Shown in pieces: positions 2,418 to 61,435 of a stretch of DNA of 64,000 nucleotides. Positions within the stretch are counted from its first letter, which is position 1; each line of letters starts with the position of its first letter. This DNA is from Eubacteriales bacterium (GTDB lineage Bacteria > Bacillota > Clostridia > Oscillospirales > CAG-272). The translations under genes were made by a program, and so were the position numbers. The notes beneath the pieces were generated by a model that saw only the letters and a list, made by a program, of their open reading frames with translations, was not told the origin of the DNA and did no database searches. The stretch lies in NCBI GenBank assembly GCA_045612105.1, contig JAZKYL010000147.1, positions 884 through 64,883 of the forward strand, given 5' to 3'.

Positions 2418-2435
2418 AGAAAGGAACAATAGATA

Positions 2436-4339: not shown

Positions 4340-4345
4340 CACCGT

Positions 4346-4942: not shown

Positions 4943-5013
4943 TGCAAGCTGTTGCATTATATTACAAGATAAAAAACAGGGCGGGAGCCCTCAGAAAAAG
5001 AAAGGATGTAAAA

Positions 5014-15274: not shown

Positions 15275-15304
15275 CAAATTTTGATTTGTCGGAGAGATAA
15301 AATA

Positions 15305-15486
15305 ATGAAATGTTTCGCAAGCGAAACATTTCATGATGCTTCGCATCATGAAATGTGCTACGCACATGAAATGAAATTCGCCTTCATTCATATGCGCTTC
15401 TGCGCATTTCATGTTCCCAAGGAACATTTCATGGCGCAGCCATTTCATTTGCCGAAGGCAAATTTCATTGCGCACCTTTGGTGCGC
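15305..15486. repeat. tandem array of nine short, non-identical stem-loops with constant ATG...CAT stem bases and GAA/TTC linkers
   Basis: Hairpins at 15305-15334, 15327-15355, 15353-15367, 15371-15387, 15392-15407, 15411-15427, 15431-15443, 15447-15463 and 15470-15486. Spacing is about 18-23 nt. Confidence 0.8.
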
Positions 15487-42949: not shown

Positions 42950-44092
42950 TTAAATATCCTTCTTTTTCTTAATAAAGGTCAATGCTCCAAGTAATACTAC
43001 CGAAAACAGTGCGCCAAAGCTTATGGAAGATCCGCAACCCCAGGATTTATCGGGATTCTTGTCGCTTTCAACTTCCGCCTTGGTGCTCTCTTCACTTGCG
43101 GAAGTGTCCTTGGCACTATCGGTTACATCCCCGATCGTAAGGTCGGTTGTATTCTCAATTCTATCCTCAGTTGTATCCTCGGTTGTGTCCTCGGTTCTAA
43201 CATCGGTCTTATCATCGCTTGCCTCTGTCACTGTAACAGTTTCCTCAACCTCATTCTTAGGCAAAGTCGTTTCCTCATCCTTTGAAGAATCATTGTTGTT
43301 CGAGTTGTCACCTGAAGAAGGGTCGTTGTTCGAGTTGTCGCCCGAAGGAGGGTTATTGTTTTCCTCATCTGAAGTGGATTCCGCTTCAGTAATAATTCCG
43401 CCTTCGGTATCCTCCGCAGCTTGAGTCTCATCCGTAATAACGTCAGTTTCCTTATCGGGATCAGTAACGCCACAGTCGGTTTCTGTTTCTGCTTTGTTGG
43501 TTGTGTCCTCCTCTGTACCTATAGCGACACCTTGAGATTCGGTCTCACTCTCAACAGTTTCTTCGCTTACGAATATTTCATCGGTCTCTGTTGTTACCAC
43601 GTCAGCCGTAGTTTCATCGGTCACAGACTCAATAGGACCGCCTAAAACGTTGATCTTTATAGGCTCAATATTTACAGTAACGTCTTCCAGCTTAGCATTG
43701 CAACATTCATAAACTTTTACTATAATAACATTCTCACCAAATTTTGCGTTTTCACCAATTCTGAAGGTAATAGTAACTAACGTTCCCGTGGCGGTTGAAT
43801 CGCTTACTGAATCCCAAAGAATATTCAATCCGACGGTTATATCTTTCTTTATAGTACCGTTCTTTACGTCAACCACCTCAAAATCATCCGTTGAAGGCAC
43901 ATTGATCCTCATACCGGCGAATCCGGGATTGCTTTCAACATTAAGAACGACCTCTACCAACTCTCCTCTCTCGCCCTCTGCATCCGACACGGTGATCGTC
44001 ATAACGTCAGACGCAGAAACTCCGACACAGAGTAAAGAGAAAACCATAAGAACCGTTACGGTTATTAATAAGATTTTTTTAATTGCAGTCAT
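42950..44092 (-). CDS. cohesin-domain anchoring protein (signal peptide, cohesin, T/E/D-rich linker, C-terminal GCGSS-TM-KKKK tail)
   Basis: 380 aa. The cohesin-like module is coded at about 43637-44011 (...VVLNVESNPGFAGMRINV...). There is no LPXTG and no SLH. The hydrophobic C-terminus is followed by KKKKDI. Confidence 0.8.
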   Translation of the reverse strand: MTAIKKILLITVTVLMVFSLLCVGVSASDVMTITVSDAEGERGELVEVVLNVESNPGFAGMRINVPSTDDFEVVDVKNGTIKKDITVGLNILWDSVSDSTATGTLVTITFRIGENAKFGENVIIVKVYECCNAKLEDVTVNIEPIKINVLGGPIESVTDETTADVVTTETDEIFVSEETVESETESQGVAIGTEEDTTNKAETETDCGVTDPDKETDVITDETQAAEDTEGGIITEAESTSDEENNNPPSGDNSNNDPSSGDNSNNNDSSKDEETTLPKNEVEETVTVTEASDDKTDVRTEDTTEDTTEDRIENTTDLTIGDVTDSAKDTSASEESTKAEVESDKNPDKSWGCGSSISFGALFSVVLLGALTFIKKKKDI

Positions 44093-44114: not shown

Positions 44115-44804
44115 TTAATTTTGCTTGCCTAACACTACCGAAGAATGTCCCGTTTCGTAATCATAATTAGCAAGATACTGACGGATAAGTATAAGGTCTT
44201 TACCATCAACTGAACCATCATCGTTTGCGTCAGAACCGTAGAGCTCGTCGGAAGAGTTGCCATTAGTCAAATACTCTCTGAGCTTGATAACGTCAAGTGT
44301 ATCGACATTATCGTCACCGTTTACGTCACCGTACATAGGCGCAAGAGGCTCTCCGAGCACTTTGATCTTTATAGGCTCAATGCTTATACTAACGGGATCC
44401 AACTCATCATTAAAACACTCAATAACTCTGATATTAATGGTGTTCTCGCCTGCCTGCGCGCGATCGCCGATCCTAAATGTAACAGTAAGTAATGTTCCCG
44501 TAGCGGTTGAATCACTTGCAGAATCCCAAAGAATATTCTTTCCGCTGGTCATCGTTTTCATGACCGTGCCGTTCTTTACCTCCACGACCTCAAAATCCTC
44601 AGTCTGAGACACGTTAATCATCAAAGCGCAGAATCCGGGATTGCTTTCAACATTAAGAACGACCTCTACCAACTCTCCTCTTTCGCCTTCAGCAACAGAT
44701 GTAGTAACCGTCATAACGTCAGACGCAGAGACTCCGACACAGAGTGAGGAAAAAATCATAAGAACCGTTACGGTTATTAATAAGATTCTTTTTATTGCAT
44801 TCAT
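44115..44804 (-). CDS. adaptor scaffoldin: signal peptide, cohesin, dockerin
   Basis: 229 aa. The cohesin is coded at about 44346-44723. The dockerin (44118-44336) has the loops DVNGDDNVDTLD and DANDDGSVDGKD. Confidence 0.85.
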   Translation of the reverse strand: MNAIKRILLITVTVLMIFSSLCVGVSASDVMTVTTSVAEGERGELVEVVLNVESNPGFCALMINVSQTEDFEVVEVKNGTVMKTMTSGKNILWDSASDSTATGTLLTVTFRIGDRAQAGENTINIRVIECFNDELDPVSISIEPIKIKVLGEPLAPMYGDVNGDDNVDTLDVIKLREYLTNGNSSDELYGSDANDDGSVDGKDLILIRQYLANYDYETGHSSVVLGKQN

Positions 44805-44829: not shown

Positions 44830-47800
44830 TTAATATTGCTTGCCTAACACTACCGAAGAATGTCCCGTTTCGTAATCATAATTAGCAAGATACTGACGGA
44901 TAAGTATAAGGTCTCTGCTATCAACCACACCGTCATCGTTTGCATCAGAACCGTAGAGGTCGTCGGAAGCGTTGATGCCGACTAAATACTCTCTGAGCTT
45001 GATAATATCAAGGGTATCGATATCATTGTCACCGTCCACGTCACCGTACATAGACACATAGTTATCTATGTAATCCGTAGTGCTTGTATTAGTTCCGGTA
45101 GCAAGCGTGAAGCTCTCCATATCCCTATTGAATTTACAGATATCCTCAAGATCATCACTCATTCCGACATAAGCAATATCTATGTAGTCCTCGGTTGACA
45201 TAACAGAACCGAAAACGTCGAAACGAAGATACTTTGCCGCATATTCACCGTTTCCGTTTGCAGCAAAAGTAGAGCTCTTGCCGAACTTAGAAAGATCAAC
45301 CACCAAAAGGTGCCATTCACCGTCGCCTATAGCTACGTTATTTATTGCAAAATAATCGCTGGCTTGGGCACTTGAATTGACCGTGCTACAGTAAATATCA
45401 AATGAGGTTACCGTTTTTGTATTGGTAGAGGGCAATCTGTATTTTACAGCAACGTACTGTCCTGTAACAGAAGAAGAACTGCCTGCATAGGCATTGAAAT
45501 AAGCCTCGGAGGAAGTGCCGTCGCTATAAAGTCTTACGTAGCCTCCGTTTTCCATATAACGAGTACTTCTTATACCGTGCTTCTTAGTGGCGATCAACTG
45601 TATCTCACCGGGAGTCTGATATACGTTAATAGGATCCACGTCAGCTATGCCTTCCTCGGGCCAGCCTGCGAAATCATCGGAGGCAACGACCTTGAAGGTT
45701 CTGCTCTCTACGTCGGTCATATCAACCGCGAACGAATAAGAATAGGTTCCGTCATCGTCAAGATATACCATATATCCGTCGTAGCTGTGATGATAACCGT
45801 GAGTATCTGGGGTCTTATAGGAGCTTACGTCGTATTCTACCCACTTGCCGTCGATCTTTTCATAGATCTTGGGATTAGTGAGCTTGTTGAAGCCGTAAGT
45901 ATGGACAGCAACGTTATTGGTTCCGCCCGAAAGAGTAAACTCAACGCTCTCGCCGTTAGCCGACTTCACTCTGGGAACAAAGGGGCTATCTATCTTACTT
46001 CCCTCACCTACGGTTACGGTAAGAGGATCAAGACAAGTGTTAGCGCGAATATTCTGCATATTGGTGTCGTCAGCGGAATCTGTCCAACCCCAAGGAGATA
46101 TGACCATATTCAGGTTAATGGTGTCACCGGGATTGAGAGTTACAGTTCCCAGATCCATAGAAAGGCTATAAACGTAATTCTTGCCGACCATAACGAAATT
46201 ATCGTCACGCTCAACGCCACCAATAACTATCTCGGAGTCGTAAAGAACGAAACCGAGGTTTGCGTTGTTCACAGACCAGCTTGCGCTCTCGGAATAGAGA
46301 TCGTAAAGCGCAACGTAAGGACAATTCTTACCGAGAACAAGCGTTTCTGCGGTATCAGTGCCGTTTGTAGCCTTGTGAACTACACCCTGCTCTCCCAAAT
46401 ATCCGAGTTTCTGATAATATCCCGCATAACCCTCAAAGGAGTAGAACGAGAAATCATTTGCGAAATCATTGATAGTAACCGCACCAAGTATCTCATATTC
46501 GATCTCATAATAAGCGCGAAGCTCATCGGTCTGAGGCATTTCAATGTGCTTATACGTAACTTTGATCTTACCGTCATCGGAAATGTAGGACATATCCGCA
46601 TCGACGTAGACGGGACCCGAAGAATTTATAATGTTTGAGATATTCTCCGTACCGTTCTTGTTACCTGCGGCATCGGTGTACTGTAAGAAATACTGATATC
46701 CCGCATGAGTGTGCTGAGGCTGATTGCTGTATTCATCACCCTCAAGCTCAAACCAATAATCCATCGACTGAGAACGGAAGTCGGGCAGAGTCCAAAGATC
46801 GCGAGCACCGAACCAAGGAGCAATACAGCTGGTCTCGGTAGTACCAACGGAAAGATGATAATAAGGGTTAAAATACTGAATAGATGATAACTGCTTAAGA
46901 GGAAATCTTCCCCAATTCTGATAGAGATTGAGCACCGTGAAGGTAAGGCTCTCGTTAGCGCCAAGGCTGAGCGGGAACACGGTCTCACTGTAAACCATAT
47001 CGCCTGCATCGTAGATAGGCTCCTCATTCTCTCCTCCGAAGTTCTTGGAAACCTCCATAGGAATAGGAAGCAGCATATTGTTTTCATCGAGAAGCGCAGC
47101 ACCCTCAAGGCTTCCGCCCTCATAAAAGCCTGAGTAAACATAAATGTTTCTGTCGCTGCTGTCACCTGTAAAGGTAGCCGTTGCGCTGTAATGCTTGTTC
47201 CACTCGGCAAAGAAAGGAGTATTAAAGCCTGTACCGCCGATAGAAAGCTTATATGCTCCGCGAAGCGCATCGTATGTATATGATGTATCACAAGTAATAG
47301 TGCTCAGGGGAGATCTTTCATTCTCCGCCTCGGCAATAAACGCATCAAGCGTATCGTTTTCGTCGGTATAAATACGCTGACCCATACGGTAGTCGTTACT
47401 TGTATTGGTAACTTTTGCCTCATTTATATTTGTTGTATTAGGATCATCAACAGGATAAGCAGAAATAGCGCCTCCCGTGGGAGTAGAAGCCTGAGTTATA
47501 GTATAAATACCGTTAGCAAGTGTTACAGTCAGCTTACCGCTGTTCTCGTGAACAGGCAGAATATATCCGAAAACACCTACACCCGTCACGTGGAAACCAA
47601 CGTACTCTGCAGTGCTCCAATCAACCCCTTCAAGAGACGAGTGAGTTCCGTTTGCGTCCTTAACCACCAATGCGTCAACTTTGCTCTGCGCAAGCTCGGT
47701 GATCATTCCCACCTCGGCAATTCCCGAAACGTCCTCGGTTGCAACGAAGTGAAGCTCCTGATGAAGCTTGTCGGAATAGGTGTGGAAGGTTCTGTCAAGT

Positions 47801-48741
47801 CTGAGCGCAGGGATCGAGCCCTCTACGTTAACTATGCTCACGTCCTTGAGAGAAACCGTCGCGCCCACTGTCTTACCCAAATCAAATCTGATTCCGCATA
47901 CGTCGCCAGTGTAATTCGAAACGCCGTTAATAAATACGGTATAGGTATGATACTCGCCGTCGTTAACGAGGTCAAAGCTAACACTCTGCGCTTCGCTGTG
48001 TCCCGTGGCACCGTTTGCAAGAATATATATCTTTCCCGTGGTAGCATTTGCATCGGTAATTTTCGCGGTAAATCTTATAGCGTTGTATGAGGTGGCAGCA
48101 TATTTCGTGCAGCTATGGTAACCCATTGTCGTCTTGTGCGGTACATACACGTACGGATTAGTTGTGGTTGCGGTATAGGAAAGCTCGCCGTTCGAAGTGG
48201 TTTTGTTTCCAACACCGTTTGTGCCCGTAAATTTGGAAATGTCGATCGCAGTCTCATTGGTCGTCGGCAGATCGCCGCCAAAACTTTGACCGAGCATATG
48301 CACGTCATAATAGTAAAAACCGTGCTTATATATATTTACCCTTGCCGTATTAGTTGACTTAGAGGTATAATATACTCCCCCGTCGTTCATTTTAACGTAA
48401 GCGTCCATAGTACCCGCAAGGTATTCTTTGCCGCTTGCGCTCTTCAAGGAAGATACCTGATTGTTCTTCGCAATAGACAAATAATAGTCCAGCGACATAT
48501 TTTTATTCTTCACCGTAAATCCGTCACGGCTTTCGTCGATATACTTCGCGGTAATGCCGTTTGCCATAGCATTGGCATATTCTATCGACTCAGAAAAACC
48601 GTTTCCGACCGAGAAAGTTGTTCCCGTTGCACCATCGCCTGTAACCGCATCCTCGGCAAATACAACAAAGGTATTCGCGGAGAGAAGCAAACATATCGCA
48701 AGGATCATAGAAAACACTCTCAACATCTTGTTTCCATTCAT
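44830..48741 (-). CDS. giant secreted dockerin protein, paralogue 1 (unknown core family)
   Basis: 1303 aa counted from ATG 48741 (GAAGGAG RBS; the track starts at TTG 48747). Signal peptide, conserved core shared with the next two genes, and a C-terminal dockerin (DVDGDNDIDTLD, DANDDGVVDSRD). Confidence 0.9.
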   Translation of the reverse strand: MNGNKMLRVFSMILAICLLLSANTFVVFAEDAVTGDGATGTTFSVGNGFSESIEYANAMANGITAKYIDESRDGFTVKNKNMSLDYYLSIAKNNQVSSLKSASGKEYLAGTMDAYVKMNDGGVYYTSKSTNTARVNIYKHGFYYYDVHMLGQSFGGDLPTTNETAIDISKFTGTNGVGNKTTSNGELSYTATTTNPYVYVPHKTTMGYHSCTKYAATSYNAIRFTAKITDANATTGKIYILANGATGHSEAQSVSFDLVNDGEYHTYTVFINGVSNYTGDVCGIRFDLGKTVGATVSLKDVSIVNVEGSIPALRLDRTFHTYSDKLHQELHFVATEDVSGIAEVGMITELAQSKVDALVVKDANGTHSSLEGVDWSTAEYVGFHVTGVGVFGYILPVHENSGKLTVTLANGIYTITQASTPTGGAISAYPVDDPNTTNINEAKVTNTSNDYRMGQRIYTDENDTLDAFIAEAENERSPLSTITCDTSYTYDALRGAYKLSIGGTGFNTPFFAEWNKHYSATATFTGDSSDRNIYVYSGFYEGGSLEGAALLDENNMLLPIPMEVSKNFGGENEEPIYDAGDMVYSETVFPLSLGANESLTFTVLNLYQNWGRFPLKQLSSIQYFNPYYHLSVGTTETSCIAPWFGARDLWTLPDFRSQSMDYWFELEGDEYSNQPQHTHAGYQYFLQYTDAAGNKNGTENISNIINSSGPVYVDADMSYISDDGKIKVTYKHIEMPQTDELRAYYEIEYEILGAVTINDFANDFSFYSFEGYAGYYQKLGYLGEQGVVHKATNGTDTAETLVLGKNCPYVALYDLYSESASWSVNNANLGFVLYDSEIVIGGVERDDNFVMVGKNYVYSLSMDLGTVTLNPGDTINLNMVISPWGWTDSADDTNMQNIRANTCLDPLTVTVGEGSKIDSPFVPRVKSANGESVEFTLSGGTNNVAVHTYGFNKLTNPKIYEKIDGKWVEYDVSSYKTPDTHGYHHSYDGYMVYLDDDGTYSYSFAVDMTDVESRTFKVVASDDFAGWPEEGIADVDPINVYQTPGEIQLIATKKHGIRSTRYMENGGYVRLYSDGTSSEAYFNAYAGSSSSVTGQYVAVKYRLPSTNTKTVTSFDIYCSTVNSSAQASDYFAINNVAIGDGEWHLLVVDLSKFGKSSTFAANGNGEYAAKYLRFDVFGSVMSTEDYIDIAYVGMSDDLEDICKFNRDMESFTLATGTNTSTTDYIDNYVSMYGDVDGDNDIDTLDIIKLREYLVGINASDDLYGSDANDDGVVDSRDLILIRQYLANYDYETGHSSVVLGKQY

Positions 48742-48783
48742 TTTCAAAACTCCTTCATGTCAAATTTTTTGGACATCATATAT

Positions 48784-48812
48784 ATAATAACATAACTTCT
48801 TCCATTTGTCAA
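48784..48812 (-). promoter_or_regulatory. sigma-A promoter of paralogue 1 (TTGACA-17-TATTAT)
   Basis: Minus strand: TTGACA at 48812-48807 and TATTAT at 48789-48784. Confidence 0.5.
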
Positions 48813-48931
48813 CAACATATGATTTTATTAATTACATATATTGTAATATTTTAAAACCAAATTTATCATTTACAAATTATCCCCCACGCAACGAAGGTCA
48901 CGTGGGGGAGCAAAAAAACACTCAAAAATTA

Positions 48932-51900
48932 TTAATCTGTGCTATCCGTGATCTGGGGACCCAGAACAACAGTTGATTCACCGGTATCGTAGTTGTAATT
49001 CGCGAGATACTGACGAAGAAGGATCAGATCAAGCGTATTAATGCTTCCGTCACAGTTGACATCTGCACCTGCGCTTACTTTTACAGTTGACTCGCCTGTC
49101 TCATAATTGAAATTAGCGATGTATTCTCTCAAGGTAACGACGTCCTTGGTGGTTATCTTCGTGCTTCCGTCATCAACTACCTTACCGTAGGCATAGGATC
49201 GGAAAGTCACAGTACCTGCTGTAACCGCAGTATTAACTCCCTGACCCGAGATAGAGTTTGCGTCAACTACCTTGACCGAGAAATCGTACTGTGAATCCTC
49301 TTCAAGGTCGAAATTAGCCTTAAATGCAAGATTAATAAGCGTTCCGTCCTCTGAAGAATCATAAGTATTGCTCCATATGATATGTGAGCCGTTTACCGAA
49401 AGTCCTTCAAGCATGTCTCCGTTCACATATCCCATAAAAGTGAATTTGGTATTGTCGTATACGGGCATAATGTCGAGATAGGAAATACCCGTGTTATTTT
49501 GAATGTTTACAGGAATGATGAAAAGATCGTCGGGATTGATAACGGGACTTGCAACGCTGATGTTTACGATCTCGTTTTCTTCAGGCGCGGTTATTTGAGA
49601 ATAGAGTCTCGTACCCGCCGTTATGTCAGCCGTACTATACAGCATCCATGCGTCCTTAAAGTTCGTGTCGTAAGCGAAAATCTCGGAGATGCTGTCAGTC
49701 ATACCGACGTATGCCACGTCCATATAGGTGCCCGTTGGAATCTCAACACCATTGAGGAAGTCGATTCTCATATATCTTGTAAGACAGGTTCCGTCTGCTT
49801 CCGGCTTAAAGGTTTTAGACGGGAACGATGCAGCATCAAATATTGCCAGATGCCAAGCATCGTCAAAAAACACTTTATGATTGTCTATAACATAGCTATC
49901 AGAACTGGTTGCATTTGCATTTTCCGTACTGGTATACATCTCTATATACGCGCTATCCTGAACTGTCTGATCTGTTGTAGAGGGCAGTCTGTACTTGATA
50001 ACCACGTATTTACCTGTGTTTACAGGGTCTGTAGCAGCATAAAGATTTGTATAAAACTCTTTTTGACCGGTAGCTTTCGGGGCAAAACGAACGAAAGTTA
50101 CTCCGCTTTCGTCGGTTTGAGCGTCGGAAGCGACAGCATTGCTGTTTACCATAATGTTCCTAGCGCGAAGGTCATCTCCCGCAAAAAGCACGTTCATATT
50201 CTGGAGAGACACGTTGCTGTCAACACTAAGCTCCCAGCCGTCGAATGCCGTATCAGCGACGACCTTGAATTTCCTTGCCTGATCGCCATTTAGAGTAATT
50301 ACAAACGAGTAGGAATACGTTCCGTCTTCACTATTGTAGTAAACGTTGTAGCCGTCGTAGCTGTGTCCGTCACCGTTGACGTCGGGAGTTGTAGCCGAGC
50401 ATACGACGTAGTCGACCCACTTCGATTCCATTTCTGACCACTCCTGGATCTTGGGGTCGGTAAGCATTGTAAAGCCGTCAACACGGATGGTCTGATTACT
50501 TTCATCACCCGAAACGGTAAAGATTGCCTCGGTGCCGTTTGTGGTCTTGACTCTGGGGAGATATACGCTTTCGACGACCTCCGCATTTTCAACGGGAGTT
50601 ATCGTAACAGGTCTGAGAGCCATATCTGCTCGAACGTCACGAACGTTCTTATCCTGAATGTCGTCGTATGTTCCCTCCATCTCCTGAGAACCCCAAGGAA
50701 GAAGAATTGCGTTGATGGTAATGCTATCGCCCGCCTTGAGTGTTACCGCTTCGAGGTTAAGAGACAACGAAAGCTTGCCGCCAAGATCGTTGAGAACGAA
50801 GCGAGGGGTTTCAGTTGCATCCTTGATAGAGATATCGGAACCGCATACGATGAGGCCTAAGTTGGCATAACCGCCACGGTTGTGATCACTGGTAGCACCG
50901 TCCATATCAAAGAAGGAGAAATAAGGATAATAGCTACCAAGCGTATACTGCTCAGATGTTCCCTTTGCTTTTGCAGTAGCTACATAACACTTATTGTCTG
51001 TACCAAGATAACCAACACGCTGATAGAGACCCGTGGGATCCATCGATTCTACAGAATAGAATTGGAAATCTCTGCTGAAGTCTGTGAAGCTGACGTCTCC
51101 AAGTATCTCGTACTTAATTTGATAATAGGTTCTGTTCTCGTCGGTCTGAGGCATCTCCATATGAGTGTAGGTTACTCTGATATTGCCGTCATCGGAGATA
51201 TTCTGCATTTCTATCTCGGCGTAGGTAGGACCGTGAGAGGTTATGACATTGTTGTAGTTTTCACTTCCGTTAAAATTGCCTTCTGAATCGGTATACATCA
51301 GCCACTTGTGGTCACCGCAGGTAGGATGCTGAGGCTGATCGCTCCAGAACGGCGCAGACATCGGACGGAAGTCGGGCAGCGTTGAGTAGGTTCTGTTCGC
51401 AGCCTTTGTAGAATACATAGGAGTTATACAGGTAGACTCCGTAACACCCGTGGACAAATGATAGTAAGGAGTTGAGAACTGGATCCACGAGATCTGCTTC
51501 AAGGGATATTTTCCCCAGTTCTGATAAGCATTTACTACGGTATATTCAGCGCTTGAATTCGCCTTAACCTCCATCGGGAAGATAGATTCGCCGTAGGATG
51601 TGTCGTCAATGTTGAAGAGTCTTGGATTCTCCTCCGAGAAGTTCTTACCGACCTGAACAGGCACGGGGATCAACATTTCGTTTGCGTCAAGCAATACGGC
51701 ACTTTCAAGACAGCCACCGGTGGTTGCGGTCATCACCCATATCTTGCGATCTTTTTCGTCGCCCGTTACGGTAAAGTTTACGTGGAATTTCTTATTGATC
51801 GCTGAAAGGGCAGGCTCGCTGAAGCCGTGAAAGCCATCTATATTAAATTTATAGATGCCGCGGATAGCGTCGTATCCGACAAAACTGCCGTCGCAATCTT

Positions 51901-53341
51901 CGCTTACTTCGATATTCTCCGAAGTAAGAGGCTCTCTCTCGATTTCTGCCTCTGCAATGAAGTCAGTGAGGGTATCATTCGTATCGGTATAAATTCTTTG
52001 ACCTATGTAGAAGTCGTTTCCGTTAGGGATCTCCATGCCTTCATACGAAGGAATGAGAGTGCCGCCTGCAGGCTTGTTGATCTGTGTTATGACGTAATAA
52101 TCGGTGCCATCTATAGTCTTTTCAGTCACGGTAAGCTCGCCGCCCGAGCCGTCGCAGGGCATAATATATCCGAATACACCGACGCCCGTAATGCAAAATC
52201 CGGCGTACTCATCCTTCTCGAAAACGTATTCGCTAACGTCATTCTTGGGGATCTTCACCTCGACACCGAACTCTGTGATTTTCTCTACGGTCTTGGTGGT
52301 TGCAAACTGAGTAAAGCTATGCATCTTGTCGGTATAAACGAGGAATGAACGGGCAACCTGAAGTCCCTCGATCGAGTCCCCCATATCGACCTGAACTACC
52401 GCCAACTCGCTGACGGTAAAGGTTTCGTCTATTCCACCCGAAAAGTCAAGGCGAAGTCTGCCTATCGTTCCGGAGTAATCACTACCGTTAAACATAGGCA
52501 CCATATATTCACGCGATTGACCGTCGCCTATAACGCTGAACGAGACACTTTTATATTGGGTAAAGCCGGTTGCGCCGCTTACCTCATAAAAGAAGGTCGC
52601 GCCCGTAATTCCCTCAGAGACGGCCATTGTTATACTGATGTAGTTATATGTGCCTGCGGGATACGCGATGCTTTCGTATTTATAGCCTCTAAGGCTATCC
52701 ATCCAACTGGGATCGGACTCTCCGAACACTATATAAGGGTCCAATGTATTAAGGTCACCGGTATTGGTGATCGTTCCCGAAACGCTTCCGGGTGACGACT
52801 TTGAGCCACCCGAGGTTACAGTGACATCTAAACTGTTTTGAACCCAGAAGTTCTTTACGTCATGGGTTTCCCCGTCCTCCTTCGTTGTGGGAGAACCGGC
52901 AAGGAAGTCTTGACCCTCAAATCTCGCGTCGTAATAGTAGTATCCGAAACGGTGAAGGTTAGCAGTAGCGACAGAAGAAGAATTGGAGGCGTAAATCCTA
53001 TCTTTACCATCGATCGTGACAAAAGCGTCCATCGTGTTTTCGATGTAGGTTTTTGTGCCATCTTTAGTCGTTAAAGAAGCTACCTGCTTATTGCCTTCCG
53101 CATTAAGCTCATAGGTTAGGTTCATCTGCTGATTTTTAACGATGAACTGTTCTCTGTTTTCATCGGCAAAGTATGCCTGAACTCCGTTTGCCAACGAATC
53201 TGCATTTTCAATAATCACGCTCTCGTCGATAGGAGTGATCTCGCCCGCAGCAACCGCGGGAAGCACACCTATACAGAACGACGACAGAAGCATTGCAATC
53301 GATAACGTGACAGTCAGAATTCTTGTTGAAAATTTCTTCAT
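48932..53341 (-). CDS. giant secreted protein, paralogue 2 (unknown core, cohesin, dockerin)
   Basis: 1469 aa counted from ATG 53341 (GGAAGGTG RBS; the track ORF starts upstream at 53437). Signal peptide MKKFSTRILTVTLSIAMLLSSFCIGVLPAVAA. C-terminal cohesin and dockerin. Confidence 0.9.
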   Translation of the reverse strand: MKKFSTRILTVTLSIAMLLSSFCIGVLPAVAAGEITPIDESVIIENADSLANGVQAYFADENREQFIVKNQQMNLTYELNAEGNKQVASLTTKDGTKTYIENTMDAFVTIDGKDRIYASNSSSVATANLHRFGYYYYDARFEGQDFLAGSPTTKEDGETHDVKNFWVQNSLDVTVTSGGSKSSPGSVSGTITNTGDLNTLDPYIVFGESDPSWMDSLRGYKYESIAYPAGTYNYISITMAVSEGITGATFFYEVSGATGFTQYKSVSFSVIGDGQSREYMVPMFNGSDYSGTIGRLRLDFSGGIDETFTVSELAVVQVDMGDSIEGLQVARSFLVYTDKMHSFTQFATTKTVEKITEFGVEVKIPKNDVSEYVFEKDEYAGFCITGVGVFGYIMPCDGSGGELTVTEKTIDGTDYYVITQINKPAGGTLIPSYEGMEIPNGNDFYIGQRIYTDTNDTLTDFIAEAEIEREPLTSENIEVSEDCDGSFVGYDAIRGIYKFNIDGFHGFSEPALSAINKKFHVNFTVTGDEKDRKIWVMTATTGGCLESAVLLDANEMLIPVPVQVGKNFSEENPRLFNIDDTSYGESIFPMEVKANSSAEYTVVNAYQNWGKYPLKQISWIQFSTPYYHLSTGVTESTCITPMYSTKAANRTYSTLPDFRPMSAPFWSDQPQHPTCGDHKWLMYTDSEGNFNGSENYNNVITSHGPTYAEIEMQNISDDGNIRVTYTHMEMPQTDENRTYYQIKYEILGDVSFTDFSRDFQFYSVESMDPTGLYQRVGYLGTDNKCYVATAKAKGTSEQYTLGSYYPYFSFFDMDGATSDHNRGGYANLGLIVCGSDISIKDATETPRFVLNDLGGKLSLSLNLEAVTLKAGDSITINAILLPWGSQEMEGTYDDIQDKNVRDVRADMALRPVTITPVENAEVVESVYLPRVKTTNGTEAIFTVSGDESNQTIRVDGFTMLTDPKIQEWSEMESKWVDYVVCSATTPDVNGDGHSYDGYNVYYNSEDGTYSYSFVITLNGDQARKFKVVADTAFDGWELSVDSNVSLQNMNVLFAGDDLRARNIMVNSNAVASDAQTDESGVTFVRFAPKATGQKEFYTNLYAATDPVNTGKYVVIKYRLPSTTDQTVQDSAYIEMYTSTENANATSSDSYVIDNHKVFFDDAWHLAIFDAASFPSKTFKPEADGTCLTRYMRIDFLNGVEIPTGTYMDVAYVGMTDSISEIFAYDTNFKDAWMLYSTADITAGTRLYSQITAPEENEIVNISVASPVINPDDLFIIPVNIQNNTGISYLDIMPVYDNTKFTFMGYVNGDMLEGLSVNGSHIIWSNTYDSSEDGTLINLAFKANFDLEEDSQYDFSVKVVDANSISGQGVNTAVTAGTVTFRSYAYGKVVDDGSTKITTKDVVTLREYIANFNYETGESTVKVSAGADVNCDGSINTLDLILLRQYLANYNYDTGESTVVLGPQITDSTD
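49193..49570 (-). other. cohesin module inside paralogue 2
   Basis: IVNISVASPVINPDDLFIIPVNIQNNTGISYLDIMPVYDNTKFTF...TVTF, followed by the dockerin at about 48956-49192. Confidence 0.7.
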
Positions 53342-53449
53342 ATCGCACCTTCCAGAAATAAAATTTTCCCCAAGAGCAATATTAAATTGCCCTCGGGGAA
53401 GGTCGTGGTCTGCATTTGTGCATACACATTTATGCATACCGTTTATTAA

Positions 53450-53478
53450 ATTATAACATAGTCACCAAATCTTGTCAA
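53450..53478 (-). promoter_or_regulatory. sigma-A promoter of paralogue 2 (TTGACA-17-TATAAT)
   Basis: Minus strand: TTGACA at 53478-53473 and TATAAT at 53455-53450. Confidence 0.6.
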
Positions 53479-53540
53479 TGATAAAAATCAGACAAAAATA
53501 TGTTTATTCTGTAATTTGAGCGATCTTGATGAATGCCCGT

Positions 53541-56500
53541 TTACTTTGCTCCGAGCTGTACGCCGGGGGTATTGCTGTCGTAGTCGTAATTTGCCAGATA
53601 CTGACGAAGAAGAATGATATCCTTCATATTCACCTCTCCGTCGCCATTGGCATCAGCTCCCGAAGCGAGAACAAATGCGGGAGTATCGGTCTCGGTATTA
53701 TAATTCGCCAAATATTCTCTGAGCTTGCTTACGTCCAAAACAGAGATTCCCAAGTCTCCGTTAGCGTTACCGTATTTGGATCCTATCCACACGGTCTCTC
53801 CGGTCGCCTTTTTGATTATCTTATTTCCATTTGCGCTATAAACGGTATTATTTTCATCTATCACTACCGTAACACCGGTATAATTACCGGAGAAAGCGTT
53901 TTGGTTAGAAATATTCGTAACAGATGCGGGGATCTTGATGCTCTTGACGTTTTCGGTAACAATAGCACCGCTTTCAATTCCGGTTACAGGCAGACCCGCA
54001 TATTCTTCGGGAATCACCAGCGAATTGATCGCGTGTCCGTCAAATCCTACGACAGCAAGGCTTTCGCCGTCGTCGTTTAGAGCATATTCAAGGCCGAATG
54101 TTGCGGGTTCCTCAACAGTAACGCGGAAGGTTCTTGCAGTTGTATCGGTAATTGTAGTTACGAAGGAATAGTTATACTTACCGTTTTCATAAGTAACTGC
54201 ATAACCGTCGTAATCGTGATACGAGCCAGTTGCATCGGGAGTATCCTTGGAGGAAACAACGTATTCTACCCAATTTCCATTCACAAGCTCCTCGATCTTG
54301 GGAACACCCAAGAATTTAAAGCCCTTTGCGAGAACAGTAATGTTAACGTCATCGGCAGCAGTGTCAAATCCGCCGTTGATGGTAAACTGAGCCGAGGATC
54401 CGTTATTTGTAACCACGGTGGGAAGGAAAGCCGAAGCCTCAACGGTACAATCAGCTACCGCAGTTGCCTTATAACCGTTTGCGGCAATCAGTTCTTTTCT
54501 GATTCGTCTTACGTTATTGTCGTTATTAACGTGATATACCTTGCTACCGTCAGCCTGCTCTTTAACGTCAACACTATAATCGGCAGGATCGAATTCAACC
54601 ACGTTGGAATCCTTCCAACCGCCGCCCCAAGGCATAATGATGGCGTTGATCTTGAAGCTATCGCCCTTCTTAAGTGTAACAGCGCCGTCAATATCGAGAG
54701 TAAGGCTTAGAGTCTGATAAGCTTCCTTTACGGCAAAATTCGCGCTGCTCTTCTTTCCTCCTATGACTATCTCCGAGGTATCAACAATAAACGAGAGGTT
54801 TCCGTAGGAAGTAGCGTTCGACATATAATAAACATCGAAATACGGCACATGTGTTCCGAGAGTGTGATATCTCGTCTCCTTTTCCTTGCCGTCGGGCCAG
54901 ATCATTTCTGTGACCTTGCAGTTATTGGTGTTGTCAAGGTAGCCGAGATATTTATAATAGGAATAACCGAAGAATGAATACAGGGAGAAATCTTCTCTGA
55001 AATTATTGATCGTCAGATCCTCTTCAACGGTATAGACTATCTCATAATAGCCTCTGTTCTCATCGGTCTGAGGCATTTCCATATGGTTGATCTCTACCTT
55101 GATCTTACCGTCGTCGGTAACATAATTTGTTGTTACGTCAGCATAGGTGGGTCCATAAGAGCCGATAGCTACGTCGGTGTATTCGGTTCCGATCATCTTA
55201 CCCGTAGAATCTTCATAGCGAAGGAAAGCGTGGTGTCCCGCGTTATAGTGCTGGGGCTGGTTGTTCCAGAAGGGCTGAGACATAGCTCTGTGGTCGGGGA
55301 GCATCTCAAAGTTTCTTCCTCTTGTGGAATAATGAGAGATACAGTTGGTCTCGGTAACACCGGTGGAAAGATGATAATAAGGAACGTAATATCCGATAGA
55401 GGATATCTGCTTGAGGGGATATTTACCCCAATTCTGATAGAGATTGAGGAGAGTGAAGTATTTGTCGTCGTCACCGCCAACGGTTATGGGGAATATTGTG
55501 TCACCGTAAGTAGTGTCGCCGCAATTATAAATCGGCTCTTCCCCTTCAGAGAAGTTCTTACATACCTCAAGAGGTACGGGGAGCATCATATCGTTTACGT
55601 CAAGGAGCGCGGCGCACTCAAGAGCGCCGCTGGAGGTATGGGTCATTACGTAAATATTTCTGTCAGTACCGTCACCCTCTATTCCAAAAGAAACGTTATA
55701 GTGCTTATTGGGAGAATCCTCGTATGCTATGCCAAAGTTCGCTACACCAGAAAGAGTAAAGTAATAGGCACCCTTGATAGGATCGTAGCCCTTGAACTTT
55801 GAACGGGGGGTTGCATCGGTATCGATCTTGATGTTTTCCGCTGTAAGAGGATTTCTTTCGATCTCAGCTTCCTTAAGGAATGCATCGAAGGTATGATTCT
55901 TATCGGTATATATTCGCTGTCCCATTCTGAAATCGTTTGTAGCATCATAAACAGGTGCGAGGATCGTATCGTTGCGAGGAAATACCTCCTGAGTGATAGT
56001 ATAAACGTTGTTCGAAAGAGTAACCTTCATGCTTCCGCTCTTTCCGTCGTAAGGAAGGATGTATCCGAAGATACCAACGTTCTTAATATCAAATCCGATA
56101 TACTCGGCACTTGCCCAATCAACACCGTTAAGAGAAGTGTGAGTTCCGTTCTTATCCTTTACGATAAGCTTGTCAACTGTGCTTGCGTTGATCTCGGTGA
56201 TAACACCGAGAGAATTGATATTGTTAACATCCTTATAGGCAACAACGTGTATCTCCTGATGGAGCTTATCGGAATAGGTATGCATGGTACGGTCGAGGGT
56301 CAAAGGAACCTTATCGTAGGTTATGTTCAGAACCTTGATGTCCTTGATCTGGACGTCTGTTCCCTCCATGCCGTCGAAATCAAACCTCAAGCCGGTGACG
56401 TTACCTGTGTAACCCTTCTCAGCCCATCTCTCGGTGGAGAAAGTGTAGGTATGCCACTCGCCGTCGTTCTTGATATTGTTTCTGATCTTTCCCTTGTCTG

Positions 56501-58298
56501 TTGTGAATGAGGCTCCGTCAATGCTGAACAGAATGTCCATTGATGAAGACGTCTCGCTCTTGATTGTGATCTGAATAGCATTATAGGATTCTGCGGAATA
56601 AGACAGACTTGTTGATCCAACCCAGGTATCAAGGGGGTTAGCTATGGTAAAGCTCAATACACCGTTAGATACCTTAGGCTTTGTGGAATGGTGGGTGGAG
56701 TATTTTGTAAACGTGCTTATATCAAGAGTTTTCGTGGAAGAGACCGTTGCGCTGTTTACAAAATCGTTATCCAGCATATGAACGTCATAGTAATAATAGC
56801 CTAATCTGAAGATATTAGGTCTCGGCTCGGCGGTATAATTACTTGCGTAATAGGTCTTACCTGAAGTAGTTTTCGCGAAGACCTTCATAGTGTTCTGAAT
56901 ATAAGCCGCGCCCGAAGGATCGGTTATAGAAGCAACGGTGGAGTTTCCGCCGGTGGTAAGATTATAGTTAACGCGAACGTTTTGATTCTCGATAGTGTAC
57001 TTATTACGGTTACCATCCTTATTGTAATATGCATCAACACCGTTCACAAGACCGTTTGCATGTGCAATCACATCTTGATTGTTGTTACTGTATTCATATT
57101 TGGGAAATCCGCCTTGATCTTCAAGGCTTCCAACGTAAACGTCCTCAACAAAATCAAGCACACAAAGTGTGGATGTATTCTTCACGGGAACTGCCGCAAA
57201 GGTCACATCAACCCACTGTCCTTCATAATCGGAAAGATCAGCGGCTATTCCGTTACAATTTTTTCCGCTTCCCGCAGCGCACTGATAAGAAGCCTTGACC
57301 TTGGTGCTTGCCGCATCCGCAAAGGTTATACCAAGTTTCTGCTGAGCCGCAGTGATAACGCTATCGCCGGCATTAAAGATCGAGGATCTTCCGTAAAGCG
57401 TGGCATCATTCCAAGTCTTTCCGTCGTCAACCGACCACACGTACTTACTGATACCACCATCTACTACGCTCCAGCCGGAAAATACGAGACAGTTATCTTC
57501 AAAGGTAGTACCGCCATAAAGTATTCTGTCAACACCGGTTTTCGAGCTTCCGCCGCGAGCACTTAATGTTGCTGCTCCGTTCGCACCCATACCGTTGATC
57601 ATATCAAGAGCAGAACAATAAGCGAGATTCGACTTGGTATAAGAGGACGAGGGATCTATATATTCCTCTTTATTTTGATAATTCTCTGCGTCATATGCCT
57701 GAGCCTCAGCCGCTGAATTAAAAAAACCGATATACTCAATATCAATGAAGGCATCCTCGGGAATTGTTCCCGCGTTCATAAAATCAAAACGGAGATAATT
57801 TGCTGAACTTCCATTATAATCTGCTATTTTGGATGCAAGATCAACCGTTACAAGATTCCACTTACCGTTAGCGGTTATAGCAAAATGCTTTGAACTGCTT
57901 GCGGCAACAGGCTTCTTGTTAACCGAATCCGAAAGGATTTCCATAGAAATGCCTGCTGTCTGTGTCCTGTACTTAATAGCAATGACAGGAGCTACAGCAT
58001 GAGCCGTATAAAAAAGATGAAAATACGCTTCCGCTGTGCCCGGACCTCCCGCAGAAAGAAGACGAACAAATTCGGTACCGTTTTTCTTGTAATGAGTTAC
58101 TTCGTCGTATCCCATACAACCATATTTGTCACCCCAGATACCGGGCTCGGCTAGGTCATATATTTCCTGTGCGGTAAATATAAGATCGGTGGTGTCGTAC
58201 TCCAATGCAACCGCGGGCATCGCGGCAAAAGGCATAGAGAGCACCGACATTACAAGCGCCAGCATAAGCGAGACGCCTCTAAACAGTTTCTTTTTCAT
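53541..58298 (-). CDS. giant secreted dockerin protein, paralogue 3 (extra N-terminal modules, LRR segment)
   Basis: 1585 aa counted from ATG 58298 (AGGAGG RBS; the track ORF starts at 58379). Signal peptide MKKKLFRGVSLMLALVMSVLSMPFAAMPAVA. Shared core. BspA-like LRR near the C-terminus. Dockerin with NANGDLGISVLD and DANGDGEVNMKD. Confidence 0.9.
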   Translation of the reverse strand: MKKKLFRGVSLMLALVMSVLSMPFAAMPAVALEYDTTDLIFTAQEIYDLAEPGIWGDKYGCMGYDEVTHYKKNGTEFVRLLSAGGPGTAEAYFHLFYTAHAVAPVIAIKYRTQTAGISMEILSDSVNKKPVAASSSKHFAITANGKWNLVTVDLASKIADYNGSSANYLRFDFMNAGTIPEDAFIDIEYIGFFNSAAEAQAYDAENYQNKEEYIDPSSSYTKSNLAYCSALDMINGMGANGAATLSARGGSSKTGVDRILYGGTTFEDNCLVFSGWSVVDGGISKYVWSVDDGKTWNDATLYGRSSIFNAGDSVITAAQQKLGITFADAASTKVKASYQCAAGSGKNCNGIAADLSDYEGQWVDVTFAAVPVKNTSTLCVLDFVEDVYVGSLEDQGGFPKYEYSNNNQDVIAHANGLVNGVDAYYNKDGNRNKYTIENQNVRVNYNLTTGGNSTVASITDPSGAAYIQNTMKVFAKTTSGKTYYASNYTAEPRPNIFRLGYYYYDVHMLDNDFVNSATVSSTKTLDISTFTKYSTHHSTKPKVSNGVLSFTIANPLDTWVGSTSLSYSAESYNAIQITIKSETSSSMDILFSIDGASFTTDKGKIRNNIKNDGEWHTYTFSTERWAEKGYTGNVTGLRFDFDGMEGTDVQIKDIKVLNITYDKVPLTLDRTMHTYSDKLHQEIHVVAYKDVNNINSLGVITEINASTVDKLIVKDKNGTHTSLNGVDWASAEYIGFDIKNVGIFGYILPYDGKSGSMKVTLSNNVYTITQEVFPRNDTILAPVYDATNDFRMGQRIYTDKNHTFDAFLKEAEIERNPLTAENIKIDTDATPRSKFKGYDPIKGAYYFTLSGVANFGIAYEDSPNKHYNVSFGIEGDGTDRNIYVMTHTSSGALECAALLDVNDMMLPVPLEVCKNFSEGEEPIYNCGDTTYGDTIFPITVGGDDDKYFTLLNLYQNWGKYPLKQISSIGYYVPYYHLSTGVTETNCISHYSTRGRNFEMLPDHRAMSQPFWNNQPQHYNAGHHAFLRYEDSTGKMIGTEYTDVAIGSYGPTYADVTTNYVTDDGKIKVEINHMEMPQTDENRGYYEIVYTVEEDLTINNFREDFSLYSFFGYSYYKYLGYLDNTNNCKVTEMIWPDGKEKETRYHTLGTHVPYFDVYYMSNATSYGNLSFIVDTSEIVIGGKKSSANFAVKEAYQTLSLTLDIDGAVTLKKGDSFKINAIIMPWGGGWKDSNVVEFDPADYSVDVKEQADGSKVYHVNNDNNVRRIRKELIAANGYKATAVADCTVEASAFLPTVVTNNGSSAQFTINGGFDTAADDVNITVLAKGFKFLGVPKIEELVNGNWVEYVVSSKDTPDATGSYHDYDGYAVTYENGKYNYSFVTTITDTTARTFRVTVEEPATFGLEYALNDDGESLAVVGFDGHAINSLVIPEEYAGLPVTGIESGAIVTENVKSIKIPASVTNISNQNAFSGNYTGVTVVIDENNTVYSANGNKIIKKATGETVWIGSKYGNANGDLGISVLDVSKLREYLANYNTETDTPAFVLASGADANGDGEVNMKDIILLRQYLANYDYDSNTPGVQLGAK

Positions 58299-58358: not shown

Positions 58359-58387
58359 ATAATAACATATTTTCTCCAAAATGTCAA
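58359..58387 (-). promoter_or_regulatory. sigma-A promoter of paralogue 3 (TTGACA-17-TATTAT)
   Basis: Minus strand: TTGACA at 58387-58382 and TATTAT at 58364-58359. Confidence 0.5.
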
Positions 58388-60453: not shown

Positions 60454-61289
60454 TGATCGCCCTCCTTCTCTTTCAACTGTTTTCTCCAGGAAACAGGCGA
60501 TGTTCCGTAATAATTCTTAAAGCACCTTGAAAAATACTCGTTGTCACAAAATCCGCACTCCTCCGCAACCTCACGTATCGACAGCTCGCTGTTAATAAGC
60601 AGTCTCGCCGCCTTCTCCATGCGCTTTTTCATTACGTATTCCATTATAGTAATGTCGTATTCCTTCTTAAAATGCTCGGTGAGAGTAACGGTACTGTAAT
60701 GAAGCTTAAAAGAAAGATCTGAAAGGGTTATTTTTTTCGATAGATTGTTTTTAATGTAAGACTTTATAAGCTGACCGATAGTCATATCGGCATCCGCCAG
60801 AAGATTATTAGTCTCAATGTACTCGGAAATAAGCGGAAGCAGAGCCGCGAACGCATCAAGCTTCTCTTTTGAATATTTCGGCAGATCCTGAATACTCTTT
60901 TCAAGTTGACTTTTGTTAAGAGTGGGCGACACATCCAAAGCAAGCTTCATAAGCTCCTTTTCGCTCTCGACTCCGTCCTCGATACCCATTCCCACAAAAA
61001 CGTATGCGACGATCTCATCATTTTTATGTATAGGCATCAAAGCTTCATAAATACCGAAAGGACACTTGTACACGTGCAGACCGTTCTTCTCGTATGCCCT
61101 CTCAAGCTCACAATCATCCGATTCAATGCAAATATCCATGCATTTTTGTGATTTGTGTATATTTGAACAGTACAAAGCGCCCGAATAGCGGCGGGCAATT
61201 ATTTTATTTTTGCTGTTGACTATGGCAACGTCCATACCCGATATTTCATAAAAGCTCTGCAAAATATCTTCGATCTTAAGCGAACCCAT
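60450..61289 (-). CDS. AraC family transcriptional regulator with N-terminal PocR-like sensor domain
   Basis: About 279 aa counted from ATG 61289 (GAAGGAGG RBS; the track starts at TTG 61307). Cys-rich PocR-like N-terminal region. C-terminal AraC HTH (...IREVAEECGFCDNEYFSRCFKNYYGTSP). Confidence 0.85.
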   Translation of the reverse strand: MGSLKIEDILQSFYEISGMDVAIVNSKNKIIARRYSGALYCSNIHKSQKCMDICIESDDCELERAYEKNGLHVYKCPFGIYEALMPIHKNDEIVAYVFVGMGIEDGVESEKELMKLALDVSPTLNKSQLEKSIQDLPKYSKEKLDAFAALLPLISEYIETNNLLADADMTIGQLIKSYIKNNLSKKITLSDLSFKLHYSTVTLTEHFKKEYDITIMEYVMKKRMEKAARLLINSELSIREVAEECGFCDNEYFSRCFKNYYGTSPVSWRKQLKEKEGDQ

Positions 61290-61435
61290 AATTCTGCCCT
61301 CCTTCAAAAATCCGTTTTTCCAAATTGAATTACTCTACTGCTTCATAATAGCATAAGACCCGTAAAATTGCAAGCCTTTTTTGCTAAAAAGCCATAAAAT
61401 TTATCGATTTTACGGTTTTACTTATTGATTTGTAG

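Follow-up and report, generated by a model that had tools for sequence, protein, structure and literature searches.

Here, we describe a family of large secreted proteins represented by three genes (paralogues 1 to 3) on the reverse strand of a 64,000-nucleotide stretch of DNA, referred to below as the window, from the Eubacteriales bacterium assembly GCA_045612105.1 (contig JAZKYL010000147.1, positions 884 to 64,883). The three proteins share a core of about 1000 residues, and we read them as members of a new family of glycan-cleaving enzymes exposed on the cell surface, here via a local cohesin-dockerin system, a reading to which we assign a probability of roughly one half. A narrower version, which we put forward more tentatively, would make the core a new carbohydrate-active enzyme (CAZyme) family with a catalytic galactose-mutarotase-like beta-supersandwich. 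Such a family would be a Gram-positive cell-surface counterpart, without sequence kinship, of glycoside hydrolase (GH) family 186, directed at rhamnose-containing polysaccharides in gut Clostridia, certain genomes of which carry 7 or more paralogues, and drawn in this genome into cohesin-dockerin display. What is new is a family without annotation, solved structure or detectable sequence link to a curated family, and as a prospective CAZy family it is a strong candidate; the fold class predicted for it and its mode of display, cellulosomal or as a lipoprotein, are already familiar.

The three open reading frames (ORFs) lie head-to-tail and encode secreted proteins of 1303, 1469 and 1585 residues, in agreement with a sequence-only reading of the same DNA, and the chosen starts precede typical signal peptides (paralogue 1: MNGNKML...). 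Aligned with MAFFT over about 1000 residues, paralogues 2 and 3 are 42% and 44% identical to paralogue 1, far beyond chance, which upholds the shared core proposed in that reading. The motif blocks it quoted are all present, with deviations in paralogue 3 (KNVGIFGYILP in place of TGVGVFGYI, SSIGYY in place of SSIQY). The tandem triplication it proposed is not recent: other genomes hold relatives of each paralogue (90%, 54% and 65% identity) that are closer to it than its neighbors in the window (42-44%), and the trio therefore consists of old subfamilies placed side by side. A related genome, in which paralogue 1 has an 87% identical counterpart, keeps the same gene order, and paralogue 1 is 100% identical to a database protein (P0001).

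Searches of curated collections placed the core outside any known family. In the three paralogues, Pfam (E ≤ 0.1) recognized dockerins only, with no match on the core and none to its carbohydrate-binding module (CBM) models, and NCBIfam returned zero matches. Sequence profiles searched against the Protein Data Bank (PDB) found dockerins only when built from three sequences and nothing meaningful when built from 60 (no match at E ≤ 10). Ten distant or giant relatives (up to 4372 residues) were likewise without a Pfam match on the core. Taken over Pfam, NCBIfam and PDB profiles, the type I dockerins at the C-termini are all that is recognized, as the initial failure to place the core had suggested. 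A literature search on polysaccharide lyase (PL) family 26, on super-sandwich and rhamnogalacturonan lyases and on new rhamnose GH families returned no relevant characterized counterpart.

The family is not rare: its unannotated members number in the hundreds to thousands. A word-seeded search gave 337 relatives of paralogue 1, and the 120 listed all reach E ≤ 1e-290, measure 974-2101 residues, have no Pfam domains and are named only "hypothetical protein [Clostridia bacterium]". A profile search of 1.84 billion representatives (50% identity clusters) returned 2189 sequences at E ≤ 1e-3, 781 at E ≤ 1e-10 and 343 at E ≤ 1e-30, the weaker of which may match through common CBM-like or immunoglobulin (Ig)-like modules alone. 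All family members seen belong to uncultured gut Clostridia, sampled from ruminants, horses, chickens and humans. Among GTDB species genomes, 250 stretches encode relatives, and our neighborhood work covers the best 78 of these. All 78 lie in metagenome-assembled genomes (MAGs), assigned to Clostridia, Eubacteriales, Oscillospiraceae, uncultured Clostridium sp. and one Mageeibacillus sp., and those with a source in the isolate name derive from sheep, goat, deer, yak, cattle or horse gut or faeces. Genomes often hold several copies (seven loci in one MAG, four in another). Of 477 near-full-length members, a crude regular expression assigns a lipobox-like N-terminus to about 62% and a dockerin to 3%. 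A shorter subfamily of about 830-1010 residues (881 clusters at 90% identity) is without the CBM-like insertion described below; some of its members (e.g. P0244) have a lipoprotein-type signal peptide, and one of its proteins occurs in 287 blocks of the sequence collection, human-gut metagenomes included.

Structurally, the core of 986 residues (numbered so that the paralogue 1 residue equals the core residue plus 44) was predicted by AlphaFold2 from a 60-sequence alignment to be almost all-beta, with a predicted local distance difference test score (pLDDT) of 90 and a predicted template modelling score (pTM) of 0.88 (model m07ed7262098c). A second model, of core residues 405-986, reached a pLDDT of 87.4 and a pTM of 0.88 (model m437438ce12b5). 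Domain limits (Table 1) were read from the predicted secondary structure, dips in confidence and comparison with the short subfamily. An N-terminal beta domain, the first half of which is also found in the short subfamily, is interrupted by a CBM-like jelly roll that is missing from the subfamily of about 830-860 residues, and it ends in a loop with pLDDT < 50 at core residues 388-404. It is followed by a galactose-mutarotase-like beta-supersandwich, the candidate catalytic domain, and by an Ig-like beta-sandwich. In short relatives, the minimal conserved unit corresponds to profile positions 313-1010 and begins in the second half of the N-terminal domain.

The inserted jelly roll matches CBM29, CBM4 and CBM22 structures in Foldseek (TMt 0.5-0.6, E ~4e-4, 12-15% identity). 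It also aligns by hhalign (probability 87.5%, E 3.6e-6) with a second, mobile module of about 140-170 residues, which makes the two homologous, so that each protein carries two copies of a family-specific CBM-like module. The module shuffling noted earlier was borne out: residues 68-192 at the N-terminus of paralogue 3 match residues 1062-1196 of paralogue 1 (BLASTP E 1e-12, 35% identity) and 1078-1226 of paralogue 2 (E 2e-8), near the C-terminus in both. All three proteins do bear a C-terminal dockerin, with Pfam Dockerin_1 scores of 30.5, 30.9 and 28.4 bits for paralogues 1 to 3 against a gathering cut-off of 22.9. Otherwise the model consists of distinct, non-repeated domains, and inspection showed no internal repeat other than the two CBM-like modules.

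To locate conserved positions, 151 representatives (50% identity clusters) were aligned to the hidden Markov model of the family. Forty-seven positions are conserved in at least 97% of them, among them 19 polar residues: eight Asp or Glu, three Arg, two Gln, and one each of Lys, His, Cys, Asn, Trp and Tyr. In core numbering these are E433, R489, E504, K524, N525, D539, W568, Q575, Y586, H587, E594, C597, D612, R614, Q634, E692, D697, E698 and R700; in paralogue 1 they are E477, R533, E548, K568, N569, D583, W612, Q619, Y630, H631, E638, C641, D656, R658, Q678, E736, D741, E742 and R744. All 19 fall within core residues 433-700, the supersandwich region, are intact in the three paralogues, and coincide with blocks already picked out by eye (EAExER, NWG, PLKQ, PYYHLSxGxTExxCI, QPQH and HxEMPQTDExR). 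A homologue alignment thus yields eight carboxylates and a histidine that are near-invariant, and judged by conservation the set looks like a candidate active or ligand site, unlike a generic Ig repeat. The conserved blocks are accordingly not generic Ig or beta-sandwich repeats, a case that had been raised against the family, and belong to one supersandwich region.

The predicted fold is closest to that of OpgG and OpgD, the GH186 enzymes. In Foldseek searches of the PDB with either model, the E. coli and Xanthomonas proteins (PDB 1txk, 8ip1, 8ip2, 8x18) rank first (E 3e-8 to 8e-6, probability 1.0), the best E-value moving from 1e-6 with the full core to 3e-8 after trimming. The alignments cover 420-470 columns of targets of 478-513 residues (about 90%), spanning both target domains. 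With template modelling scores (TM) of 0.29-0.37, a root-mean-square deviation (rmsd) of about 20 Å and 8-10% identity, this likeness extends no further than fold class and domain order; differing inter-domain geometry could be a partial cause of the low TM. The next matches are the mutarotase-like supersandwich domains of GH36, GH38, GH2, GH101, PL17 and PL26, of which the PL26 exo-rhamnogalacturonan lyase scored E ~2e-4 (probability 0.99, TM 0.15-0.28, 7-8% identity). Viral structures (BFVD) returned generic all-beta tail proteins only (TM ~0.1) and were dismissed as uninformative. In 2023, OpgD and OpgG were shown to be beta-1,2-glucanases founding GH186, with the supersandwich fold as the catalytic domain; in OpgD, D388 is the acid, and D300 and R359 take part in a proton relay (PMC10514313). 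By conservation alone, candidates for counterparts of these three residues exist among the invariant Asp, Glu and Arg residues of the present family.

Gene neighborhoods of homologues elsewhere point to rhamnose. ORFs were called in the fetched loci and clustered, and 111 close same-strand neighbor genes were scanned against Pfam, giving GH106-like (8), TMEM164-like (8), GH25 (8), RrnaAD (8), RhaA (5), GH43 (4) and GH78 (4), with RrnaAD recurring through pure synteny. GH106 is alpha-L-rhamnosidase-like, GH78 is a rhamnosidase and RhaA is L-rhamnose isomerase. For a subfamily of about 1230 residues, nine species-level genomes have a same-strand GH106-like gene first, the usual order being GH106-like, TMEM164-like and family member, followed by GH78 in three of the nine. 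Members of other subfamilies are paired with GH78 (L042, L080) or lie downstream of RhaA (L074-L079), the latter loci being counted as one event because they come from closely related genomes. Within the rhamnose clusters the family member has a lipobox (e.g. LAAC|KDKP), and the GH106-like and GH78 proteins are without signal peptides and presumably cytoplasmic, which fits cleavage outside the cell, import, and removal of rhamnose inside. In most loci of the rhamnosidase-cluster type, a membrane protein of about 270 residues from the TMEM164 family, perhaps serving in transport or acylation, lies between the GH106-like gene and the family member (L038, L041, L043, L045, L047, L048, L051 and L070; e.g. 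L051:6022-6831).

The genes near the trio in the window were less informative. An SASA esterase, AraC/PocR regulators, Gfo/Idh/MocA and a 625-residue protein had been taken as glycan-related context, and none is consistently linked to the family elsewhere. The first three recur weakly and at low similarity (3-7 of about 78 loci; SASA and Gfo/Idh/MocA in only 3 each) and were dropped. The 625-residue protein (58576-60453, reverse strand), which never adjoins homologues in the GTDB loci examined and has no Pfam, NCBIfam or PDB match, was dropped as a functional clue as well. It is without a signal peptide, and its gene overlaps by 4 nucleotides that of the upstream PocR/AraC regulator (60450-61307, reverse strand). 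It belongs to a small family of its own (85 clusters without Pfam domains, the named members all from uncultured Clostridia), and a homologue of 629 residues occupies the same position in a close sister genome (L089).

Display of the trio is suggested by two genes that follow paralogue 1 on the same strand. One encodes a 229-residue protein with a dockerin (Pfam Dockerin_1 E 2e-9) and a Cohesin match under the gathering score (E 7e-4); the other encodes a 380-residue protein that is 68% identical to it over the first 164 residues and whose C-terminus, read directly, has the make-up of a membrane anchor (Table 1). The cohesin that the sequence-only reading had given to paralogue 2 is undetected by Pfam; its assignment stands through homology (E 1e-24) to the 229-residue protein. 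Together, the adjacent cohesin genes and the cohesin-like domain of paralogue 2 indicate that the locus encodes cargo, adaptor and anchor of a small display system, in which the presumed cohesin-dockerin pairings are ours. Side by side, the dockerins of the 229-residue protein and paralogue 1 are closely similar, and the like 5′ regions of the cohesin genes and these like dockerins suggest recent local duplication or recombination of display modules. An identical hairpin, AACCGTAACGGTT, lies 29 nucleotides into both cohesin genes (window positions 44051-44063 and 44763-44775, reverse strand), and a sister genome has a single 322-residue gene in place of the two. All three paralogues have their own near-consensus, extended -10 promoter-like site. 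Between that of paralogue 2 and its ribosome-binding site lies a further terminator-like hairpin (53366-53400, reverse strand; 15-bp stem and T-run), which may be the terminator of paralogue 3 lying past the next promoter or a leader attenuator.

Table 1. Features of the three genes and the adjoining display genes, in window coordinates; residue numbers of domains refer to paralogue 1
Feature	Coordinates	Strand	Description and basis
Paralogue 1	44830..48747	-	1305 aa from TTG, 1303 aa from ATG 48741; ORF call; signal peptide, family core, mobile CBM-like module, type I dockerin
N-terminal beta domain, first half	48244..48615	-	aa 45-168 (core 1-124); holds the GYYYYD block; AlphaFold2 all-beta, pLDDT ~90
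Inserted CBM-like jelly roll	47821..48243	-	aa 169-309 (core 125-265); YNAI...DGEYHTYT...IRFD; interrupts the N-terminal domain
N-terminal beta domain, second half	47404..47820	-	aa 310-448 (core 266-404); ends in a variable low-confidence loop
Galactose-mutarotase-like beta-supersandwich, candidate catalytic domain	46033..47403	-	aa 449-905 (core ~405-861); AlphaFold2
Ig-like beta-sandwich closing the core	45658..46032	-	aa 906-1030 (core 862-986); AlphaFold2 secondary structure
Mobile CBM-like module, paralogue 1	45160..45564	-	aa 1062-1196; BLASTP to paralogue 3 N-terminus
Type I dockerin, paralogue 1	44887..45048	-	aa 1234-1287; Pfam PF00404, E 4e-7
Paralogue 2	48932..53341	-	1469 aa from MKKFST; mechanical ORF extends to 53437; signal peptide, core 50231-53263, mobile module 49664-50110, cohesin-like domain 49190-49528, dockerin 49004-49171
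Paralogue 3	53541..58298	-	1585 aa from MKKKLF; mechanical ORF extends to 58379; signal peptide, N-terminal mobile module 57723-58097, extra beta region, core 54105-57077, leucine-rich-repeat-like stretch (by eye; no Pfam match there), dockerin 53595-53765
229-aa adaptor	44115..44804	-	signal peptide, cohesin, dockerin; begins 25 nt after paralogue 1
380-aa anchoring protein	42950..44092	-	signal peptide, cohesin, acidic T/E/D-rich linker, C-terminal hydrophobic segment, then KKKKDI
Promoter-like site, paralogue 3	58359..58387	-	TTGACA-17-TATTAT with TG; consensus scan 11/12
Promoter-like site, paralogue 2	53450..53478	-	TTGACA-17-TATAAT with TG; consensus scan 12/12
Promoter-like site, paralogue 1	48784..48812	-	consensus scan; sequence similar to the paralogue 3 site
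Strong terminator-like hairpin after paralogue 2	48880..48909	-	13-bp stem, 8 GC

On our favored reading, the conserved unit of about 800 residues (N-terminal beta domain, supersandwich and Ig-like domain) would be a glycoside hydrolase or polysaccharide lyase. By analogy with GH186 OpgD and OpgG, the near-invariant carboxylates, His, Lys and Arg within the supersandwich would make up its active site, and the CBM-like jelly rolls, one within the N-terminal domain and one mobile, would hold the polymer. Most relatives would be fixed to the cell by a lipoprotein-type N-terminus, a role that type I dockerins may have taken over on the three diverged paralogues here, with attachment through the cohesins of paralogue 2, the 229-residue adaptor and the 380-residue membrane-anchored protein. 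As to the substrate, rhamnose-containing polysaccharides, either from plants (pectic or gum glycans) or from bacteria (rhamnose-rich wall polysaccharides or exopolysaccharides), are our leading guess, the released oligosaccharides being imported and then trimmed by cytoplasmic GH106 and GH78 rhamnosidases. The glycan-active function proposed in the sequence-only reading has thereby gained a predicted fold nearest to OpgG/OpgD and the rhamnosidase and RhaA neighbors of homologues, and it is from these that we infer it.

Comparison with known systems places the family between several of them. In common with GH186, it is exported and its core is predicted to run from a supersandwich into an Ig-like beta-sandwich; it differs in its extra N-terminal domain with a CBM-like insertion, its Gram-positive surface or cellulosome display and its rhamnose-related context. 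The PL4 rhamnogalacturonan lyase (Aspergillus RhgB, PDB 1nkg) has a catalytic beta-supersandwich, a fibronectin type III or Ig-like domain and then a CBM-like jelly roll, an order shared by paralogues 1 and 2, and its substrate contains rhamnose. The present proteins are, however, about twice as large, 1nkg is not among the top 50 Foldseek matches of either model, and PL4 or rhamnogalacturonan-lyase models gave no Pfam match at E ≤ 0.1 in the three paralogues and no PDB sequence match at E ≤ 10. PL26 (Penicillium chrysogenum, PDB 5xqj, 5xqg, 5xq3) is also a large all-beta multidomain enzyme with a rhamnose-containing substrate, but at the scores given above the match may reflect common accessory beta domains only. 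As for mechanism, the eight conserved carboxylates would suit a hydrolase, whereas the conserved Lys, His and Arg would suit a lyase, the invariant K524 and H587 (core numbering) being candidates for a Lys/His pair like that of PL4; by analogy, the domain order would suit a lyase as well. With cellulosomal enzymes and small scaffoldins of the Acetivibrio/Ruminococcus type, the trio shares a C-terminal type I dockerin with a duplicated calcium-binding repeat, and the locus shares an adjacent cohesin-dockerin adaptor and a membrane-anchored cohesin protein, known here from their genes. It departs from them in that the cargo domain is no known CAZy module and only about 3% of family members have dockerins.

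Several observations weigh against this reading. The low TM and large rmsd of the OpgG/OpgD matches are joined by an hhalign comparison of the family profile with E. coli OpgG that found no sequence relationship (probability 0.06%), and catalysis of the core we infer, by analogy, for every member alike. The mutarotase-like supersandwich is a non-catalytic accessory domain in most CAZymes (GH36, GH38, GH2), and the leucine-rich repeat (LRR) or cohesin modules of some members would also fit adhesion or scaffolding. Perhaps four or five independent arrangements, in subfamilies other than the three of the window, underlie the rhamnose links, and the window itself has no rhamnose genes. Moreover, four of five sampled short-subfamily members (P0354, P0269, P0302 and P0307) stand alone amid mostly housekeeping genes (MreB/MreC/penicillin-binding protein, ClpC/CtsR and GAPDH among such neighbors), and the fifth (P0380) adjoins YfhO and a GDSL-lipase gene.

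These observations feed three other explanations. A non-catalytic role at the surface or in a cellulosome, as glycan-binding adhesins or structural proteins whose supersandwich would be a large lectin-like binding platform, is rather unlikely in our view, even though the supersandwich is accessory in most of the CAZymes matched here (the N-domain of GH36, the C-domain of GH38, domain 5 of GH2). The proteins consist only of beta-sandwich, CBM-like, Ig-like, cohesin, LRR and dockerin modules, giant relatives of 2900-4400 residues have no recognizable catalytic domain, and a 2589-residue BspA-LRR dockerin protein in the window indicates that the organism displays adhesin-like proteins. However, conservation of 19 polar residues, eight of them carboxylates, in at least 97% of representatives at an otherwise ~35-45% identity is more typical of catalysis, the family already has separate CBM-like modules for binding, and apparent operons with cytoplasmic rhamnosidases and rhamnose isomerase fit the release of importable products. 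An envelope housekeeping enzyme acting on the cell's own wall or exopolysaccharide, parallel to OpgG/OpgD and with the dockerin trio as a secondary elaboration, we consider improbable. It would account for the setting of the four short-subfamily members outside sugar-utilization clusters, for the endogenous envelope glycan on which the closest fold matches act, and for one orthologous group that lies 26 nucleotides after a GH25 muramidase-LRR gene (GH25 is found in 8 neighbors by Pfam and 13 loci by BLAST-cluster count). That adjacency is, however, part of a conserved gene order that includes rRNA methylase genes, and it may reflect common descent and have no functional meaning. The presence of up to seven or more paralogues in one genome, along with CBM-like modules and dockerins, is suggestive of substrate foraging, and the links to RhaA and to GH78 and GH106 proteins without signal peptides point to nutrient use. 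Finally, OpgG/OpgD lead the Foldseek matches of both models over nearly the whole target, which might be taken to mean that the core is a divergent true GH186 member, a beta-1,2-glucanase or transglycosylase; we regard this as very improbable. The hhalign result means that the family is no sequence member of GH186, and as Pfam gave dockerins only, the model MdoG, which we take to be the one covering OpgG, did not match. Low identity and TM, a different N-terminal domain with about 300 extra residues, an extracellular Gram-positive rather than a proteobacterial periplasmic setting, and neighbors pointing to rhamnose and away from beta-1,2-glucan metabolism all argue the same way.

Some further features of these loci and of the window deserve mention. 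Opposite the family gene, several homologous loci (GC 52-63%) have an unbroken antisense ORF of 1273-1506 residues, longer than the called sense ORF (L014:7650-11495, L025:470-4417, L031:7752-12272, L051:6992-10813, L053:7461-11336 and L054:7836-11699, all on the minus strand of the locus). These ORFs have no similarity to the core, are able to mislead gene callers and are probably a codon-usage effect; a neighbor-ORF cluster (c373) was rejected as made up of such shadows of the family gene itself. The window paralogues have antisense ORFs of 164-353 residues. The 2589-residue protein (7473-15242, forward strand) has BspA-type repeats (13 LRR_5 stretches) and a dockerin near its N-terminus (residues 34-92), an unusual position, making it a second kind of dockerin-tagged surface protein in the window. 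In the gap downstream of its gene, two Gut-1 RNA motifs (Rfam RF01706), for which we know of no function, face each other at 15303-15377 (forward strand, 50.1 bits) and 15401-15470 (reverse strand, 57.6 bits), at or above the gathering score. At the window edge, phage-type genes (206-6294, forward strand), encoding an HTH_Tnp_1 protein, a large terminase, a P22-like portal and a capsid protein, are a prophage or prophage remnant.

If the core is catalytic, it would represent a new CAZyme family known only from uncultured gut Clostridia, and hundreds to thousands of large "hypothetical proteins", some in common human-gut organisms, would gain an annotation. Such enzymes could explain attack on rhamnose-bearing glycans (pectic rhamnogalacturonans, gums or bacterial rhamnans), a substrate class for which little is known of the enzymes of Firmicutes. 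They would also provide a further case, after GH186 and PL4, of the normally accessory supersandwich serving as the catalytic domain.

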